Shown: in pieces, positions 19,920 through 64,000 of the stretch
Position numbering within the stretch: the first letter of the stretch is position 1
Layout of the letters: every line of letters begins with the position of its first letter
Assembly (NCBI RefSeq): GCF_056746865.1
Contig: NZ_CM163382.1
Length of the DNA stretch: 64,000 nucleotides
Strand: one strand, 5' to 3'
Notes under the pieces: model-generated
What the model was told of the DNA's origin: nothing
Database searches by the model: none
What the model saw: only the letters and a program-made list of their open reading frames with translations
Made by a program: the position numbers and the translations under genes

Positions 19920-20438
19920 GTGATGAAATTTAAAAAATGTCTTCTGCCTGTGGCAACGTTAGCGTCATTCACTCTGGCAGGATGCCAGTCAAATGCTGAT
20001 GATCATGCCGCCGATGTTTATCAAACCGATCAACTGAATACCAAACAAGAAACTAAAACCGTTAATATTATTTCCATTCTTCCCGCAAAAGTTGCCGTAG
20101 ACAACTCCCAAAATAAACGAAACGCACAAGCCTTCGGCGCGCTTATTGGTGCAGTCGCTGGCGGTGTTATTGGCCACAACGTCGGGTCTGGCAGCAATTC
20201 CGGAACGACGGCAGGTGCAGTTGGCGGCGGAGCTGTTGGCGCGGCAGCGGGTTCTATGGTGAATGATAAAACCTTAGTGGAAGGTGTTTCTTTAACGTAT
20301 AAGGAAGGCACCAAAGTGTATACCTCCACCCAGGTGGGTAAAGAGTGCCAGTTTACGACAGGTTTAGCCGTTGTTATTACCACGACGTATAACGAAACGC
20401 GTATTCAGCCAAATACGAAATGTCCTGAAAAGAGCTAA
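19920..20438 (+). CDS. yfgH: outer-membrane lipoprotein with glycine-zipper region
   Basis: 172 aa; lipobox LAGC; Gly-rich GxxxG repeats. Confidence 0.75.
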   Translation: MMKFKKCLLPVATLASFTLAGCQSNADDHAADVYQTDQLNTKQETKTVNIISILPAKVAVDNSQNKRNAQAFGALIGAVAGGVIGHNVGSGSNSGTTAGAVGGGAVGAAAGSMVNDKTLVEGVSLTYKEGTKVYTSTQVGKECQFTTGLAVVITTTYNETRIQPNTKCPEKS

Positions 20439-20453
20439 TGATCAGGAGGAGTC

Positions 20454-20993
20454 ATGAAGAAAGTTTTTCTTTGCGCCATCTTAGCCTCCTTAAGCTATCC
20501 GGCTATCGCCTCATCATTGCAGGATCAACTCTCTGCTGTCGCAGAAGCGGAACAGCAAGGTAAAAATGAAGAGCAAAGGCAGCATGACGAATGGATCGCG
20601 GAGCGCAACAGGGAAATCCAGCAAGAGAAGCAACGTCGCGCAAACGCCCAGGCCGCCGCTAACAAAAGAGCGGCAACGGCAGCGGCAAATAAGAAAGCTC
20701 GTCAGGATAAACTGGATGCCGAAGCCACTGCGGACAAAAAACGCGATCAAAGTTATGAAGATGAGCTACGCAGCTTAGAGATTCAGAAACAAAAACTGGC
20801 GCTGGCGAAAGAAGAAGCCCGCGTTAAGCGCGAAAACGAATTTATCGATCAGGAACTGAAGCACAAAGCTGCGCAAACCGATGTGGTGCAATCTGAAGCT
20901 GACGCAAACAGGAATATGACTGAGGGCGGTCGCGATCTGATGAAAAGCGTGGGCAAAGCAGAAGAGAACAAATCGGACAGCTGGTTTAACTAA
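20454..20993 (+). CDS. yfgI: secreted coiled-coil protein YfgI
   Basis: 179 aa; signal peptide, charged coiled-coil body. Confidence 0.7.
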   Translation: MKKVFLCAILASLSYPAIASSLQDQLSAVAEAEQQGKNEEQRQHDEWIAERNREIQQEKQRRANAQAAANKRAATAAANKKARQDKLDAEATADKKRDQSYEDELRSLEIQKQKLALAKEEARVKRENEFIDQELKHKAAQTDVVQSEADANRNMTEGGRDLMKSVGKAEENKSDSWFN

Positions 20994-21040
20994 GCGATGT
21001 CAGTAACTTCAAGCCTATGATTCGTGAGTATAATAAATAT

Positions 21041-21065
21041 CCTCCGGCATAGCCGGAGGTTTTTC
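21041..21065 (+). terminator. rho-independent terminator downstream of yfgI
   Basis: CCTCCGGC-ata-GCCGGAGG hairpin followed by TTTTT. Confidence 0.7.
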
Positions 21066-21164
21066 AAATGCGCTAGACTGGCCCCCTGAATCTCCAGACA
21101 ACCAATATCACTTAAATAAGTGATAGTCTTAATACTAGTTTTTAGACTAGTCATTGGAGAGCAG

Positions 21165-21530
21165 ATGATTGATGTCTTAGGACCGGAGAAACGCAGACGG
21201 CGTACTACACAGGAAAAGATCGCTATTGTTCAGCAGAGTTTTGAACCGGGAATGACGGTCTCCCTTGTTGCCCGGCAACACGGTGTGGCAGCCAGCCAGT
21301 TATTTCTCTGGCGCAAGCAATACCAGGAGGGAAGTCTTACTGCTGTGGCCGCAGGAGAGCAGGTCGTTCCTGCCTCTGAACTTGCTGCTGCCATGAAGCA
21401 GATTAAAGAACTCCAGCGCCTGCTCGGCAAAAAAACGATGGAAAATGAACTCCTTAAAGAAGCCGTTGAATACGGGCGTGCAAAAAAGTGGATAGCGCAC
21501 GCGCCCTTATTGCCCGGGGATGGGGAGTAA
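21165..21530 (+). CDS. insC: IS2 transposase OrfA (InsC)
   Basis: 121 aa beginning [30 protein letters not shown]; HTH protein. Confidence 0.9.
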
Positions 21531-22393
21531 GCTTAGTCAGCCGTTGTCTCCGGGTGTCGCGTGCGCAGTTGCACGTCATTCTCAGACGAACCGATGACTG
21601 GAAAGATGGTCGCCGCAGCCGTCACTCAGATGATACGGATGTGCTTCTCCGTATACACCATGTTATCGGAGAGCTGCCCACGTATGGTTATCGTCGGGTA
21701 TGGGCGCTGCTTCGCAGACAGGCCGAACTTGATGGTATGCCTGCGATCAATGCCAAACGTGTTTACCGGATCATGCGCCAGAATGCGCTGTTGCTTGAGC
21801 GAAAAACCGCTGTACCGCCATCGAAACGGGCACATACTGGCAAAGTGGCCGTGAAAGAAAGCAATCAACGATGGTGCTCTGACGGGTTCGAGTTCCGCTG
21901 TGATAACGGAGAAAAACTGCGAGTCACGTTCGCGCTGGACTGCTGTGACCGTGAGGCACTGCACTGGGCAGTCACTACGGGCGGCTTCGACAGTGAAACA
22001 GTACAGGACGTAATGCTGGGAGCGGTGGAACGCCGCTTCGGCAACGAGCTTCCGGCGTCTCCAGTAGAGTGGCTGACGGATAATGGTTCATGCTACCGGG
22101 CTAATGAAACACGGCAGTTTGCCCGGATGTTGGGGCTTGAACCGAAGAACACGGCGGTGCGGAGTCCGGAGAGTAACGGCATAGCAGAGAGCTTCGTGAA
22201 AACGATAAAGCGTGACTACATCAGTATCATGCCTAAACCAGACGGGTTAACGGCAGCAAAGAACCTTGCAGAGGCGTTCGAGCATTATAACGAATGGCAT
22301 CCGCATAGTGCACTGGGTTATCGCTCGCCACGGGAATATCTACGGCAGCGGGCCAGTAATGGGTTAAGTGATAACAGGTGTCTGGAAATATAG
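21488..22393 (+). CDS. insD: IS2 transposase OrfB (InsD), DDE catalytic domain
   Basis: 301-aa ORF overlapping insC in another frame, as expected for IS3-family frameshifting. Confidence 0.9.
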
Positions 22394-22404
22394 GGGCAAA
22401 TCCA

Positions 22405-23112
22405 TGCGCCTATAAGGCTCTCTTACCAGCCGCGCCCTAACAGGCGCACACGATCTGACATTTGCATCCAACTTCGTTACTTACGGCCCGTAAACGGGCT
22501 GCCCGGATAGGGAATCGATAACTGCTCTCCCATTTTATCCTCTTCAAGCTGGTGCTTTATGTAATCCTGTATCTTCGCCGTGTTCTTACCCACTGTATCG
22601 ACGTAGTACCCTCTGCACCAGAACTCCCTGTTCCTGTATTTGAATTTCAAATCACCAAACTGCTCGTAAAGCATCAGACTGCTTTTCCCTTTCAGATATC
22701 CCATAAACCCGGATACGCTCATTTTAGGCGGGATCTCCACAAGCATATGGATATGATCTGCACAGCATTCAGCTTCCAGAATCCGTACGCTTTTCCACTC
22801 ACACAGCTTTCTCAAAATACTGCCTATTGCTCTACGCTTCTCTCTGTAGAACACCTGTCTTCGGTATTTTGGCGCAAAAACTATGTGATATTTACAGTTC
22901 CATCGGGTGTGCGCTAAGCTCTTTTCGTTCCCCATTGGGACCCCCTTTTGATTTCTTGTTTGACACTTGCAGTTGCCAGACCGCAAGGTGTTTTAACAAA
23001 TCAAAAGGGGTTTTAATAACTGGCTCAAAGCTGAAAGCTTTCCGGAACCCCCAGCCTAGCTGGGGGTTTTCTGTGCACAAAAAACCCTCTGTAGTAACAG
23101 AGGGTTTTGTTC
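22405..23112 (-). mobile_element. IS200-like element (IS200/IS605 family); boundaries approximate
   Basis: About 708 bp containing tnpA with an RBS-sequestering stem (22942-23013) and terminal hairpins near 23040-23108; it is unclear whether the outermost hairpin belongs to the IS or to the host. Confidence 0.55.
22477..22935 (-). CDS. tnpA: IS200/IS605-family transposase TnpA (HUH-type)
   Basis: 152 aa from MGNEKSLAHTRWNCKYHIVFAPKYRR with the HxH motif (DHIHMLVEIPP) and catalytic Tyr region; the ORF track begins at a longer upstream start. Confidence 0.85.
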   Translation of the reverse strand: MGNEKSLAHTRWNCKYHIVFAPKYRRQVFYREKRRAIGSILRKLCEWKSVRILEAECCADHIHMLVEIPPKMSVSGFMGYLKGKSSLMLYEQFGDLKFKYRNREFWCRGYYVDTVGKNTAKIQDYIKHQLEEDKMGEQLSIPYPGSPFTGRK

Positions 23113-23130
23113 ATTCATAGTGCAGGGTCA

Positions 23131-23147
23131 AATCATTCCCACTCAAT
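23131..23147. repeat. attL candidate: 17-bp direct repeat AATCATTCCCACTCAAT
   Basis: Identical to 62451-62467, which overlaps the guaA stop codon. Confidence 0.6.
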
Positions 23148-23234
23148 TGTTTACGACAATCATAACCAATTGAGTGATAACATTTTTCCAAAACTTAATT
23201 TTTCTAGTACCGTTTTATATACCGTCACCGGAAA

Positions 23235-23732
23235 TCAGTGCCACGATTTTTGCTTCTTCAGTGAATCGTATTGCTGTTCGCAGGATTCTCCTGCAATCCG
23301 ATACTTTTCAGCCTCAGCTGCTGTTGCGTTGTAAACTCGATTGCTTTCTTCAAGCATGTCGGCGAGCACACCGATGACCTTGCTGGCTGGCGTGCCAGTG
23401 GGGAAAGATCCGGTATAGTGTTCGGCGAGTCGCTTGGTTTTGTCAAGCTCGGCGCGCAGGCTGTCAGCAGCGGCATTAGCATGCTCAGCATCAACACGCG
23501 CCACATCGATACGGGATTGTGCTTCACGTTCAATTTGTGTTTTCTCCTGATCACGTTGTGACCTGGCCTTATCATCAGCCTGTTTCTGATCTTCCTGTGC
23601 CTGCGCATACCCGGCATCGTACTGGCGACTGCCGTGTATATTCCAGGCAACCACTCCGACGGTAAACAGAGCAGCAAGAATCACCACGATAAGCAGTTGT
23701 TTCCAATATGCTTTTACGAATGCCCAGATCAT
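23235..23732 (-). CDS. Rz-like inner-membrane spanin (i-spanin)
   Basis: 165 aa; N-terminal TM helix followed by a charged coiled coil; immediately downstream of the endolysin. Confidence 0.65.
23258..23506 (-). CDS. Rz1-like outer-membrane lipoprotein spanin (o-spanin), embedded in the +1 frame of Rz
   Basis: ORF wholly inside the Rz gene; lipobox LLTAC and a proline-rich mature region. Confidence 0.55.
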   Translation of the reverse strand: MWRVLMLSMLMPLLTACAPSLTKPSDSPNTIPDLSPLARQPARSSVCSPTCLKKAIEFTTQQQLRLKSIGLQENPANSNTIH

Positions 23733-24358
23733 ATAGCCAGCACCTTACTGGCAGTGACGTACCGCGCGCGCCGGTCGTCGATGCCGTTCCGGCCACCATT
23801 GATAATCAGAGTTACACGTGCAATATCACCGGTATACTTCATGCATCCTTTGCTGGCAAAGAACCACGCCGCGCTACGAGCCGCGTATTCGTCCTGCGCC
23901 AGCAGTTCAGGATTCTCCAGCAAGTCCACTTTCAAGCCGTTTCCGCAGTCACGATAGTTATTCAAACCGGTAATCTGGATAAGTCCGCGACCTCGGTAAT
24001 TCCAGCCATCGCCGGGGGCATTGTTCCCCATGCGTTTGCTGTACACCAGATTGGCAATCGCTCTCTGGCGCTCAGGTGGCAATGGTGGTTCACCAGCACG
24101 GCGCCCCAATGCGTTGGCCTGTCCCTGAGTGAGACGCCCAGCCCGAACGAAGTTAGCCAGTCCGCTGACGCTGTAGTTGAAATTTTCCTGCAACCGGGTG
24201 AAACCTCCAGACTCATGCCCGACCTGAGCAATAAACATTGCCTGATCTTCTGGTTTGCTGATACCAAACTCTTTCATCGCAGAAGTTATATGCGAGAACC
24301 AGCGTGCGGCAAGCGCCTCGCTAATACCAGCAGCTCGCTGGAATTGTTTAATCTCCAT
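23729..24358 (-). CDS. endolysin, glycoside hydrolase family 19 (chitinase-like lysozyme)
   Basis: 209 aa from [11 protein letters not shown]; GH19-type motifs ([21 protein letters not shown]). Confidence 0.8.
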
Positions 24359-45159: not shown

Positions 45160-45236
45160 GTGGCATTAGCTCAGCTGGACAGAGCAACCGCCTTCTAAGC
45201 GGTTGGTCGCAGGTTCGAATCCTGCATGCCACGCCA
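45160..45236 (+). tRNA. tRNA-Arg, anticodon UCU (reads AGA), prophage-encoded
   Basis: Manual cloverleaf: acceptor GTGGCAT/ATGCCAC, D-stem GCTC/GAGC, anticodon stem ACCGC/GCGGT with loop CTTCTAA, T-arm GCAGG-TTCGAAT-CCTGC, discriminator G and CCA end. Confidence 0.85.
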
Positions 45237-60005: not shown

Positions 60006-60329
60006 AATCACGCCTGACGAATCGCGATTATCTCGCTATTGGTATTGCAGAGATTGCTGGACTCAATGGCGCATGATTTGACAATGCCGCCAGAGCTATC
60101 GCATACTGACCGCACTAGAAAACAAACAGCGGTCATCCGCACCCGATAGCTTTGCGGCTTTTTTATGCCTGCAATCTGGCATAGTCACATCCGTACAAAG
60201 GTCGGGTGGAGAGGCGTAATACAACACCCGAAAGGGGAATATGCCCGGAGCTACTGTTTGTGCTCTAGTTGACACCCGATCACCAGCTACTAACTGGTTT
60301 TCGTAACTAAAAACAAACAGGAGGTCATC

Positions 60330-61011: not shown

Positions 61012-62262
61012 TTATTCCCCCGCCATCCACTTCTCAAACTTCGACGGGGAGAACGGAATCAGATCCGTATGCTCCCCGTTAATCCAGGAATCAATCATAT
61101 CGGACCACTGCTGCAACATGTAGGCGCGCTGTCTGGCGTATTCCGCTTTGTTATATACGGCGCGCACACCTTTCTGCTCATGTGCCAGAGCCTTTTCAAT
61201 CCAGTCTGAAGGATAACCAGCCTCATGCAACAACGTACTGGCTGTACGGCGCATATCGTGTACGGTGAAGTCCTGAATATGCTCACCATCTTCATTTATT
61301 ATTTTCACCGTTCTGTCGATCAGAGAGTTCAGCGCGGCATTAGATAATGGCTTCCGGAAGTTGTAACGACCAGGAACCAGATATTCACTTCCACCAGCGC
61401 ACATCTGCAACCCAACCAATATATCCTGAGCCTGTTTAGGCAGGTAAATAACGTGCGCCCGGCTTCCCTTCATGCGGTCTGAAGGAATTGTCCATGTCCA
61501 TTTTTTAAAATCTATTTCGTCCCACGTTGCATTAGTGAATTCGCCTTTACGAACCATAGTGATAAGCACCAGCTTTAAAGCCATTTTCATAGTGCCCATA
61601 GCACCAATGGCATCCAGCGTGCGGAAGAACAGGCCAATTTCTTCTGGTGTCAGTGTTCGCTCTCGTGGTTTAAATATGGCGATAGACGAAGGTTTAATGT
61701 CAGCCGCAGGATTAAACAAACCATGACCACGGTCATTGGCGTGACGGTATACGCTACTGATGATCTCCCTGGCCTGCACTGCTGTTGCCCGGCCACCGCG
61801 TTCGACAATCCGGTCACACAAATCACGAACCATCGATGTGGTAATTTCAGCCATCATTTTATTGCCAAGAACCGGAAGTATGTCACGGTCGATCACCGCC
61901 TGTTTCATTGCGCGGGTACTGTCAGCCAGGATGACGTGTTTCATATAACTGTCGGTATGTACCGCAAACGTCTCGGCACCACGAATCTTTTTGATACCGT
62001 CACGTTTAGCCGCAGCCGGTGACTGGCCTGCTTTAAGCAGCTTCTTTGCAGCAATCAGTTCTTCTCGCGCTTCTGCCAGGCTGATACCGTCACGCCCATA
62101 CTGCCCGATTACCAGTGTTTCGCGGCGACCGTTGATACGGTAGTCATAGCGAAACGAGACCGTGCCTGACGTAAGCACAGCTACATACAGCCCGTCACGA
62201 TCGGAGACCTTGTACAGTTTGTCCTGCGGCTTGAGGTTTTTTAATTTTGTATCGGTAAGCAC
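61012..62262 (-). CDS. int: tyrosine integrase (P4-like, with N-terminal arm-binding domain)
   Basis: 416 aa; N-terminus MLTDTKLKNLKPQDKLYKVSDRDGLYVAV typical of arm-type DNA-binding domains; C-terminal catalytic region (HDMRRT...AHEQKGVRAVY); adjacent to the att repeat. Confidence 0.85.
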   Translation of the reverse strand: MLTDTKLKNLKPQDKLYKVSDRDGLYVAVLTSGTVSFRYDYRINGRRETLVIGQYGRDGISLAEAREELIAAKKLLKAGQSPAAAKRDGIKKIRGAETFAVHTDSYMKHVILADSTRAMKQAVIDRDILPVLGNKMMAEITTSMVRDLCDRIVERGGRATAVQAREIISSVYRHANDRGHGLFNPAADIKPSSIAIFKPRERTLTPEEIGLFFRTLDAIGAMGTMKMALKLVLITMVRKGEFTNATWDEIDFKKWTWTIPSDRMKGSRAHVIYLPKQAQDILVGLQMCAGGSEYLVPGRYNFRKPLSNAALNSLIDRTVKIINEDGEHIQDFTVHDMRRTASTLLHEAGYPSDWIEKALAHEQKGVRAVYNKAEYARQRAYMLQQWSDMIDSWINGEHTDLIPFSPSKFEKWMAGE

Positions 62263-62450: not shown

Positions 62451-62467
62451 TTAATCATTCCCACTCA
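62451..62467. repeat. attR candidate: 17-bp direct repeat AATCATTCCCACTCAAT overlapping the guaA stop codon
   Basis: Identical to 23131-23147; encodes the last guaA codons (..IEWE-stop) on the minus strand. Confidence 0.6.
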
Positions 62468-64000
62468 ATAGTCGCTGGTGGCTTGCCGCTGATGTCATAC
62501 ACCACGCGGGAAATACCGTTCACTTCATTGATAATGCGGTTGGAAACGCGACCGAGGAAGTCATACGGCAGGTGCGCCCAGTGTGCGGTCATAAAGTCGA
62601 TGGTTTCGACAGCACGCAGAGAAACAACCCAGTCATACTTACGACCATCGCCCATTACACCAACGGAACGTACCGGCAGGAAGACGGTGAACGCCTGGCT
62701 GACTTTGTCGTACAGGTCCGCTTTACGCAGTTCTTCAATAAAGATGGCGTCAGCACGGCGCAGCAGGTCGCAGTACTCTTTCTTCACTTCGCCCAGTACA
62801 CGAACGCCGAGGCCTGGTCCCGGGAACGGGTGACGGTACAGCATGTCGTACGGCAGGCCCAGCTCCAGACCAATCTTACGCACTTCGTCTTTGAACAGCT
62901 CTTTCAGCGGTTCAACCAGCCCCATCTTCATCTCTTTCGGCAGGCCGCCCACGTTGTGGTGAGATTTGATGACGTGTGCTTTACCGGTTGCAGATGCGGC
63001 AGATTCAATAACGTCAGGGTAGATAGTGCCCTGCGCCAGCCACTTCACGTCTTCCAGTTTCAGTGCTTCTTCATCGAATACTTCAACGAAAACGCGCCCG
63101 ATGATTTTACGTTTTGCTTCCGGATCGTTTTCGCCGGCCAACGCTGACAGGAAGCGAGCTTCTGCCGGAACGTGAACAATGTTCAGACCAAAGTGATCGC
63201 CAAACATATCCAGAACCTGCTCTGCTTCGTTGAGACGCAGCAGGCCGTTGTCGACGAATACGCAAGTCAGGTTTTTACCGATAGCGCGGTGCAGCAGCAT
63301 TGCGGTTACGGAGGAATCCACACCACCAGAGAGGCCGAGGATGACTTTATCGTCGCCTACCTGCTCGCGGATGCGAGCTACGGCGTCGTCGATAATTTTC
63401 GCTGGCGTCCACAGGGCTTCACACTGGCAGATATCACGCACAAAACGCTCCAGCATGCGCATACCCTGGCGGGTGTGAGTCACTTCCGGGTGGAACTGTA
63501 CGCCATAGAAGCGTTTTTCTTCGTTAGCCATAATGGCAAACGGGCAGCTTTCGGTGCTGGCTACGGTGACGAAGTCGGACGGGATAGCGGTAACTTTATC
63601 GCCGTGGCTCATCCAGACATCGAGCAGCGGTTTACCGTCTGCGGTCAGCGCATCTTCGATACCGCGAACCAGTGCGCTGTCGTTTACGACTTCAACCTGC
63701 GCGTAGCCAAATTCACGTTCGTTAGAGGCTTCAACGTGACCGCCCAACTGCATTGCCATGGTCTGCATGCCATAGCAAACGCCGAATACCGGTACGCCTG
63801 CTTCAAAGACATACTGCGGCGCGCGCGGGCTGTTTTCTTCGGTGGTGCTTTCCGGGCCGCCGGAAAGAATAATGCCGCTTGGGTTGAAGTCACGAATTTG
63901 TGCTTCTGTCACATCCCACGCCCACAGTTCGCAGTAAACACCCAGTTCACGCACGCGGCGCGCAACCAGTTGAGTGTACTGAGAACCGAAGTCCAGAATG
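62455..64000 (-). CDS. guaA: GMP synthase (glutamine-hydrolysing), 3' portion; N-terminus lies beyond the window
   Basis: C-terminal ATP-pyrophosphatase domain (SGGVDSSV P-loop) and part of the glutamine amidotransferase domain; reading frame runs off the right window edge. Confidence 0.9.

Follow-up and report, generated by a model that had tools for sequence, protein, structure and literature searches.

Three mobile elements, an IS2, an IS200-like element and the left end of a prophage, are found between yfgI and guaA in the 64,000-nucleotide stretch analyzed here (the window; contig NZ_CM163382.1 of assembly GCF_056746865.1), which raises the question of whether they lie side by side in a region that attracts insertions or were inserted one into another. 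In the initial annotation, a complete IS2 was placed against the tnpA-distal end of the IS200-like element, and the gap was described as an insertion hotspot. Reading of positions 20400-24000 together with the list of open reading frames gave the order yfgI, a hairpin with a T-run (21041-21064), the IS2 frames on the plus strand, IS200 tnpA on the minus strand, two hairpins, and the phage lysis genes (Table 1). The comparisons with other genomes indicated that the yfgI-guaA gap is almost certainly a record of nested, successive insertions, all of them by known mobile elements. The assembly was taken as correct, and all readings rest on the assembled sequence.

Table 1. Features of the yfgI-guaA region and the adjoining prophage, in window coordinates
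Feature	Coordinates	Strand	Remarks
yfgI CDS (host)	20454-20993	+	179-aa ORF; K-12 pdeF-yfgG-yfgH-yfgI collinear, 98.1% identity
Native spacer after yfgI, 38 bp	20994-21031		
IS200C right-end fragment, 42 bp	21032-21073	-	Detached by IS2; includes left TGCGC; absent from K-12 empty site
IS200 right-end subterminal hairpin CCTCCGGCATAGCCGGAGG	21041-21059	.	8-bp stem, 3-nt loop; 9 nt from terminus
IS2 target duplication TGCGC	21069-21073 (left), 22405-22409 (right)		
Complete IS2, 1,331 bp	21074-22404	+	K-12 IS2A alignment, Pfam, NCBIfam
IS2 inverted-repeat arms	21083-21115 and 22364-22396		33 nt, 79% complementarity
IS2 orfA	21165-21530	+	
IS2 A6G frameshift site AAAAAAG	21482-21488	+	
IS2 orfB	21488-22393	+	Intact
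IS200C main body, 674 bp	22405-23078	-	Includes right TGCGC; 100% identical to intact IS200C in L005 and L006
IS200 tnpA	22477-22935	-	Intact; 152-aa Y1 transposase
IS200 5′ UTR	22945-23068	-	Full-length Rfam STnc490 match, 146 bits vs gathering score 56
IS200 left-end hairpin	23046-23068		nt 11-33 from left end (10 nt from terminus)
Native bidirectional yfgI/guaA terminator	23079-23112	.	A-run, 12-bp stem, T-run; host; contiguous with yfgI spacer in K-12
Left attachment core AATCATTCCCACTCAAT, 17 bp	23131-23147	.	Overlaps original guaA stop (23133-23135) and last codons
phiV10-like prophage, about 39.3 kb	23148-62452	-	Lysis genes at left end
Tyrosine integrase	61012-62262		Integrase domains (Pfam)
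guaA, cut by window end, with right attachment core (62453-62469)	62453-64000	-	97.4% identity to K-12 guaA

The element between the two TGCGC repeats was a complete IS2, as had been annotated. It was exactly 1,331 bp long with both orfA and orfB intact, and the alignment with IS2A of E. coli K-12 MG1655 (IS3 family, IS2 group) showed 56 substitutions and no indels, with the terminal 87 and 26 nt being exactly those of IS2A. By the ISfinder convention, isoforms share at least 95% nucleotide identity with the reference element; the identity of 95.8% found here lies within this limit, although it is borderline and was calculated against the K-12 copy rather than the ISfinder reference. OrfA was identical to that of IS2A, and OrfB differed at 10 of 301 residues. 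The proteins contained the Pfam HTH_Tnp_1 and rve (DDE) domains and matched the NCBIfam models of the IS2 repressor TnpA (276 bits, cutoff 229) and the IS2 transposase TnpB (708 bits, cutoff 597). A length of about 1,331 bp, imperfect terminal inverted repeats, two overlapping frames with an A6G site, an rve transposase and a 5-bp duplication were thus all found, and the transposase is predicted to be produced by -1 frameshifting at A6G. Length, termini, A6G, rve, the 5-bp duplication and OrfA (100%) are shared with IS2A. Compared with IS2A, the IS2 of the window belongs to a variant lineage, 99.5-99.8% identical to the copies in TUM1881 and TUM9754. In RefSeq, the variant in these two carries only the label “IS3 family transposase”.

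The neighbor of IS2 was a 711-bp IS200 with an intact tnpA, in agreement with its earlier description as an IS200-like element. Its TnpA matched Pfam Y1_Tnp (3.8e-38) and NCBIfam NF033573, contained the HIH motif and was homologous to the solved TnpA structures of IS608 and ISDra2. The element was small (711 vs 707-711 bp), encoded only a Y1 HUH transposase, carried subterminal hairpins at both ends and had no terminal inverted repeats. A left-end terminator hairpin, a 5′ UTR stem-loop hiding the ribosome-binding site and an antisense RNA region (STnc490 / art200) were also present, at positions that agree with the published ones (PMC4513863), where the terminator hairpin occupies nt 12-34. 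The spacing of the hairpins is typical of the family and agrees with the published map of IS200 (PMC4513863, PMC6006769), and the right-end hairpin folded as DNA with -10 kcal/mol and z = -3.6 on the tnpA-sense strand. What the window copy shares with IS200 / IS200C (IS200/IS605 family) includes the length, the 152-aa Y1 HUH TnpA, the left hairpin at nt 11-33, the STnc490 UTR, the absence of terminal inverted repeats and of a target duplication, and insertion right after the T-run of a terminator. Its right-end hairpin is identical to that of the Yersinia relative IS1541, which in Yersinia pestis ends in the same hairpin and tail. In RefSeq, the TnpA of copies 100% identical to the window IS200 is named “IS200C family”.

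The boundaries of IS200 were obtained from the empty site of K-12, where the alignment showed that the yfgI spacer joins straight to AAAAAACCCTCTGTAGTAACAGAGGGTTTT / AAAAAACCCTCTGTAGTAACAGAGGGTTTTGTT. Because the K-12 spacer is continuous with the native hairpin, IS200 spans 21032-23078, the hairpin at 21041-21059 belongs to IS200 and the hairpin at 23079-23112 belongs to the host. Because AA occurs at both junctions, the terminus can be placed only to within 2 nt, and comparison of the empty and occupied sites revealed no IS200 target duplication beyond these 2 nt. Three unrelated loci (L001-L003) carry IS200 copies with this left end and the identical 42 bp at the right end. The boundary on the prophage side had been regarded as ambiguous, with the outermost hairpin possibly being host sequence; the outer hairpin is indeed of host origin, as it is present in K-12, whereas the boundary itself is now resolved within 2 nt. 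This native terminator hairpin folded with -12 kcal/mol and z = -6.5 and was also found as inverted repeat I5.

With these boundaries, IS2 sits inside IS200 and not beside it. Its entry point was 42 bp from the right (tnpA-distal) end of IS200 and 68 bp past the tnpA stop codon, 9 bp from the foot of the right-end hairpin and 4 bp beyond the hairpin T-run. The earlier placement of IS2 against the end of IS200 was therefore incorrect, and the interval given for the pair (21069-23112) omitted 37 bp of IS200 on the left and took in 34 bp of the host terminator on the right. Without IS2, the IS200 sequence (21032-21073 plus 22410-23078) was identical at 711 of 711 positions to intact IS200C in L005 and L006. 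In silico removal of IS2 and one TGCGC left 1,065 nt that matched uninterrupted alleles in one piece; at least 80% of this reconstruction was covered in 133 of 5,426 complete E. coli genomes, in which yfgI is followed by intact IS200C and then by guaA or the prophage. TGCGC was present as a single copy in the uninterrupted IS200C alleles. The annotated 5-bp duplication thus stands, and it is not a chance repeat, since removal of IS2 and one TGCGC restores the one-piece match of 1,065 nt with the IS200 identical at all 711 positions. K-12 IS2A and three further IS2 copies that interrupt IS200 elements also have duplications of 5 bp.

In the side-by-side geometry, IS2 would lie against the outer terminus of IS200, and the host terminator of yfgI would be the hairpin at 21041-21059. 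Its terminator-like score, the TTTTT after it on the yfgI strand and its distance of only 47 bp from the yfgI stop codon favor this view. However, K-12 has no such hairpin, and its yfgI spacer leads directly to the other one. The 42 bp at 21032-21073 end IS200 copies beside unrelated genes on chromosomes and a plasmid, and IS1541 also terminates in this hairpin and tail; an element without the 42 bp would be 669 bp long and would lack a right-end hairpin. A host origin of this hairpin is therefore hardly tenable, and the position of IS2 within IS200 is retained. Since IS2 and IS200 are both multicopy repeats, a repeat-induced misjoin in the assembly could also have produced the nested arrangement. 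The 5-bp duplication is perfect and lies at the exact IS2 termini, and the precursor is exactly restored; this is the signature of transposition and not of a misjoin, so that an artefact of this kind can for practical purposes be dismissed.

The IS200 insertion parted yfgI from its native terminator, and yfgI now meets the right-end hairpin of IS200 followed by TTTTT. The right-end hairpin was terminator-like on both strands, with the TTTTT tail on the plus strand. It may act as a substitute terminator of yfgI, and judged by its sequence, the hairpin with T5 would now terminate yfgI transcripts. The initial annotation had labeled it the yfgI terminator. Its origin is IS200 instead, since K-12 lacks the hairpin and unrelated IS200 copies share it; the label is wrong in origin and plausible in function, because the hairpin with TTTTT is terminator-like on the plus strand. 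A promoter scan of 20900-23300 returned no sigma-70-like sites and was uninformative.

The nesting of IS2 in IS200, together with the uninterrupted state in 133 genomes, shows that IS200 arrived before IS2. The course of events almost certainly had three steps. The 711-bp IS200C entered directly 3′ of the guaA-side T-run of the shared yfgI/guaA terminator, in guaA orientation and without target duplication, at what is the usual target for IS200-group elements. The 1,331-bp IS2 later entered IS200C at TGCGC, doubling those 5 bp. Independently, a phiV10-like phage integrated by site-specific recombination at the core of 17 bp that lies at the guaA 3′ end. The comparison with strains lacking the elements, which had been suggested as a check on the order of insertion, thus ordered the two insertion sequences only, IS200 before IS2. 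The lengths are in full accord: the 92 bp of the K-12 intergenic region, 711 bp of IS200C, 1,331 bp of IS2 and 5 bp of duplication sum to 2,139 bp, and the window has exactly 2,139 bp between the stop codon of yfgI (20993) and what remains of the guaA stop codon (23133). The gap holds no further inserted sequence beyond IS200C, IS2 and the duplication.

The left end of the prophage was confirmed close by, at the left core (Table 1). The match to K-12 sequence broke off at 23150 and resumed at 62453, and the 17-bp core was repeated at 62453-62469. Besides the integrase domains, DUF2514 (Pfam) was found in the prophage. Its left 25 kb matched phiv142-3, HEMP4 and phiV10 with 86-89% coverage and 97-98% identity. 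The prophage resembles the phiV10 / epsilon15-like temperate podoviruses in its size of about 39 kb, the collinear left 25 kb, the tyrosine integrase and the use of the guaA 3′ end, and differs from the nearest phage records in that about 11-14% of the compared left 25 kb is not common to them. This left phage junction recurred in 189 of the 5,426 genomes, among them AR_0085, whose phage end is the closest and which has no IS200 at the site; integration of the phage is for this reason independent of IS200.

When 20900-23300 was used for the search, no genome spanned the whole stretch. Many matches started at 21032, 42 bp to the left of IS2, at unrelated chromosomal or plasmid loci, and at these loci IS2 interrupts IS200 at other positions. 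The exact junction of the IS200 right-end 42 bp with TAGACTGG was found in 0 of 5,426 complete E. coli genomes, as was the exact yfgI/IS200/IS2 junction. The IS2 event is therefore private to this strain, and the insertion is a possible marker for the lineage. Two-piece matches revealed IS2 inside an IS200 in 11 of the 5,426 genomes, at other positions, with at least six positions in all. A special targeting of IS200 by IS2 was considered and is probably not at work, the 11 cases observed being close to the chance expectation of about a dozen per 5,426 genomes, a rough estimate that assumes about three IS200 copies of 711 bp and about six IS2 copies in a 5-Mb genome and ignores shared ancestry. 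As to a possible IS2 target consensus, some IS2 copies elsewhere had left flanks like GGAGGTTT.TTCA.ATGC, the best of thousands by BLAST; other IS2 flanks were dissimilar.

Compared with the intact IS200C allele at the site, the window copy is split by IS2, so that its ends lie 2,047 bp apart instead of 711, and is otherwise identical. This 2,047-bp IS200::IS2 composite retains both IS200 ends and tnpA intact, and IS2 insertions in other IS200 copies exist, so the composite might have formed elsewhere and reached the site by IS200-type transposition of the 2,047 bp or by gene conversion between IS200 copies. Against this origin, the exact right-end/IS2 junction occurs nowhere else in the 5,426 genomes and the 11 genomes with IS2 in IS200 differ in position, whereas the IS200 is 100% identical to the resident allele, whose uninterrupted form is present in 133 genomes. 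Arrival of a ready-made composite is thus very unlikely, and insertion of IS2 into the resident IS200C is preferred. Elements of the IS200/IS605 family move by a single-strand “peel-and-paste” Y1 transposase, and in IS608 a longer element is excised less. With its ends now about 2 kb apart, the composite is probably even less mobile than IS200 itself. Both ends of elements of this family must be recognized by TnpA as single-stranded hairpins (PMC6006769), and IS200 is reported to be nearly dormant (PMC4513863).

The hotspot proposed for this gap supposes that mobile elements unrelated to one another are repeatedly drawn in by the region itself. Three elements do lie within about 2.1 kb; among the 5,426 genomes, 133 have IS200C at the site and 189 have a phiV10-like prophage, figures that are genome counts and not independent events on a phylogeny, and at least 19 genomes (H31-H49) have both IS200C and prophage DNA there. 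Each of these two has, however, a sufficient reason of its own: IS200 is at the site because IS200 targets terminator hairpins, and the phage owes its position to the 17-bp core in the guaA end, which its integrase uses with or without IS200. All IS200 copies found there have one and the same junction and an identity of 99.9-100%, as would be expected if a single insertion had been inherited; the co-occurrence counts are confounded by clonal descent, and IS2 was found at this position in none of the 5,426 genomes. A true hotspot is therefore weakly founded and unlikely here. Clustering reflects three unrelated targeting logics, and an attraction intrinsic to the region is not required; IS2 appears to have landed in neutral DNA, the interior of an insertion sequence downstream of a terminator.

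The preference of IS200 for terminators was evaluated with a census of left-end flanks, in which the exact 23-nt left-end hairpin was located in one genome per species (more than 120 stretches). A perfect hairpin with a T-run abutted the left end in 103 of 118 distinct flanks, compared with 0.9% of 20,000 positions drawn at random from the same loci. The last 7 nt before the left end were T-rich, and the foot of the hairpin was mostly 4-7 nt away. In E. coli, the left end likewise followed a hairpin and T-run on the tnpA-sense strand at each of four independent sites. A preference of IS200-group elements for terminator-adjacent sites is strongly supported by these observations. An excess of terminators upstream of IS200/IS605 elements has been reported statistically (bioRxiv 10.1101/2025.07.22.666184), and an IS1541 copy lies between pheL and pheA in Yersinia. 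These two were the nearest precedents in a literature search, in which targeting of terminators by IS200 or IS1541 was nowhere stated explicitly; the terminator-adjacent rule is probably at least partly known already. One tentative explanation, for which the mechanism is inferred, is that IS200-group elements home to terminators by mistaking these for their own right end, which consists of a hairpin and then ATATTTATT, a terminator being defined for this purpose as a hairpin followed by about 6 T-rich nt. If true, this mimicry would explain the position of the present copy exactly after the T-run of the guaA terminator, the abutting tandem copies of IS1541, and the harmlessness and long life of IS200 insertions.

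Each component of the gap is a known element that behaves as expected; insertion sequences nested in one another are common, and nothing in the arrangement is unusual. The main value of the analysis is the correct annotation of element boundaries and nesting. The right-end hairpin of IS200 resembles a host terminator, is readily mistaken for one and is in this respect an annotation trap, which leads to wrong boundaries and to a nested insertion being read as two adjacent ones. More generally, clustered elements need no hotspot: a terminator-seeking insertion sequence, a site-specific phage and a neutral-landing insertion sequence can converge on a short gap between convergent genes. The sole point of wider interest is the clean terminator-adjacent rule of the IS200 group together with the resemblance of the IS200 right end to its target.

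A hairpin followed by a T-run directly preceded the elements of the IS200 group, read on the tnpA-sense strand, in 103 of the 118 distinct left-end flanks (loci L009-L128, from a scan of one genome per species), compared with 0.9% of random positions. The native yfgI/guaA terminator beside the IS200 copy of the window was a target of this type. The right end of IS200 itself, with a hairpin and ATATTTATT, was similar to such a target. In Y. pestis, tandem copies of the Yersinia relative IS1541 were directly adjacent to each other (L074, L075, L077, and L121).

Other IS200 copies were hit independently by IS2 at no fewer than six different positions in 11 complete genomes (L001-L003 and H114-H124), and an IncF plasmid was found among the carriers. 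Each of the three insertions examined for duplications (L001-L003) had its own. Chance plus neutrality would yield about the observed number of these insertions. At unrelated loci (L130-L132), a small number of IS2 copies had left flanks similar to that of the window IS2 (21055-21073), with the pattern GGAGGTTT.TTCA.ATGC. A weak target preference of IS2 may lie behind the similar flanks, but the resemblance is probably a selection effect of BLAST, being the best of thousands.

Features in the window and at three unrelated loci with interrupted IS200 copies
Feature	Location	Strand	Remarks
Terminator-type target	23079-23112		hairpin + T-run adjoining IS200
IS2 inside IS200	L001 3201-4531		own 5-bp duplication
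IS2 inside IS200	L002 3327-4657		own 5-bp duplication
IS2 inside IS200	L003 3385-4715		own 5-bp duplication
17-nt inverted repeat	23140-23176		CACTCAATTGTTTACGA / TCATAACCAATTGAGTG; 88% complementary, 3-nt gap
phiV10-like prophage	23148-62452		~39.3 kb; integrated in 3' end of guaA
tRNA gene in prophage	45160-45233	+	
Rfam sRNA-Xcc1 match in prophage	60200-60289	+	close to integrase end

The closest phage records lacked about 11-14% of the sequence in the prophage's left 25 kb. The inverted repeat spanned the boundary at which the left att core meets the phage arm, and may be a binding site for the integrase or excisionase.

The exact 23-nt left-end hairpin of IS200, AACCCCCAGCTAGGCTGGGGGTT, was unaltered across loci L009-L128, whose carriers included Yersinia, Vibrio ruber, Brenneria, Dickeya, and Edwardsiella, as well as MAGs assigned to Mailhella/Desulfovibrio, Bacillota, Oxalobacter, and Saccharibacteria, for which contamination is possible. 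The 10-12 nt separating this hairpin from the element terminus were lineage-specific. Such a pattern across very distant taxa suggests either strong constraint or a wide horizontal spread.
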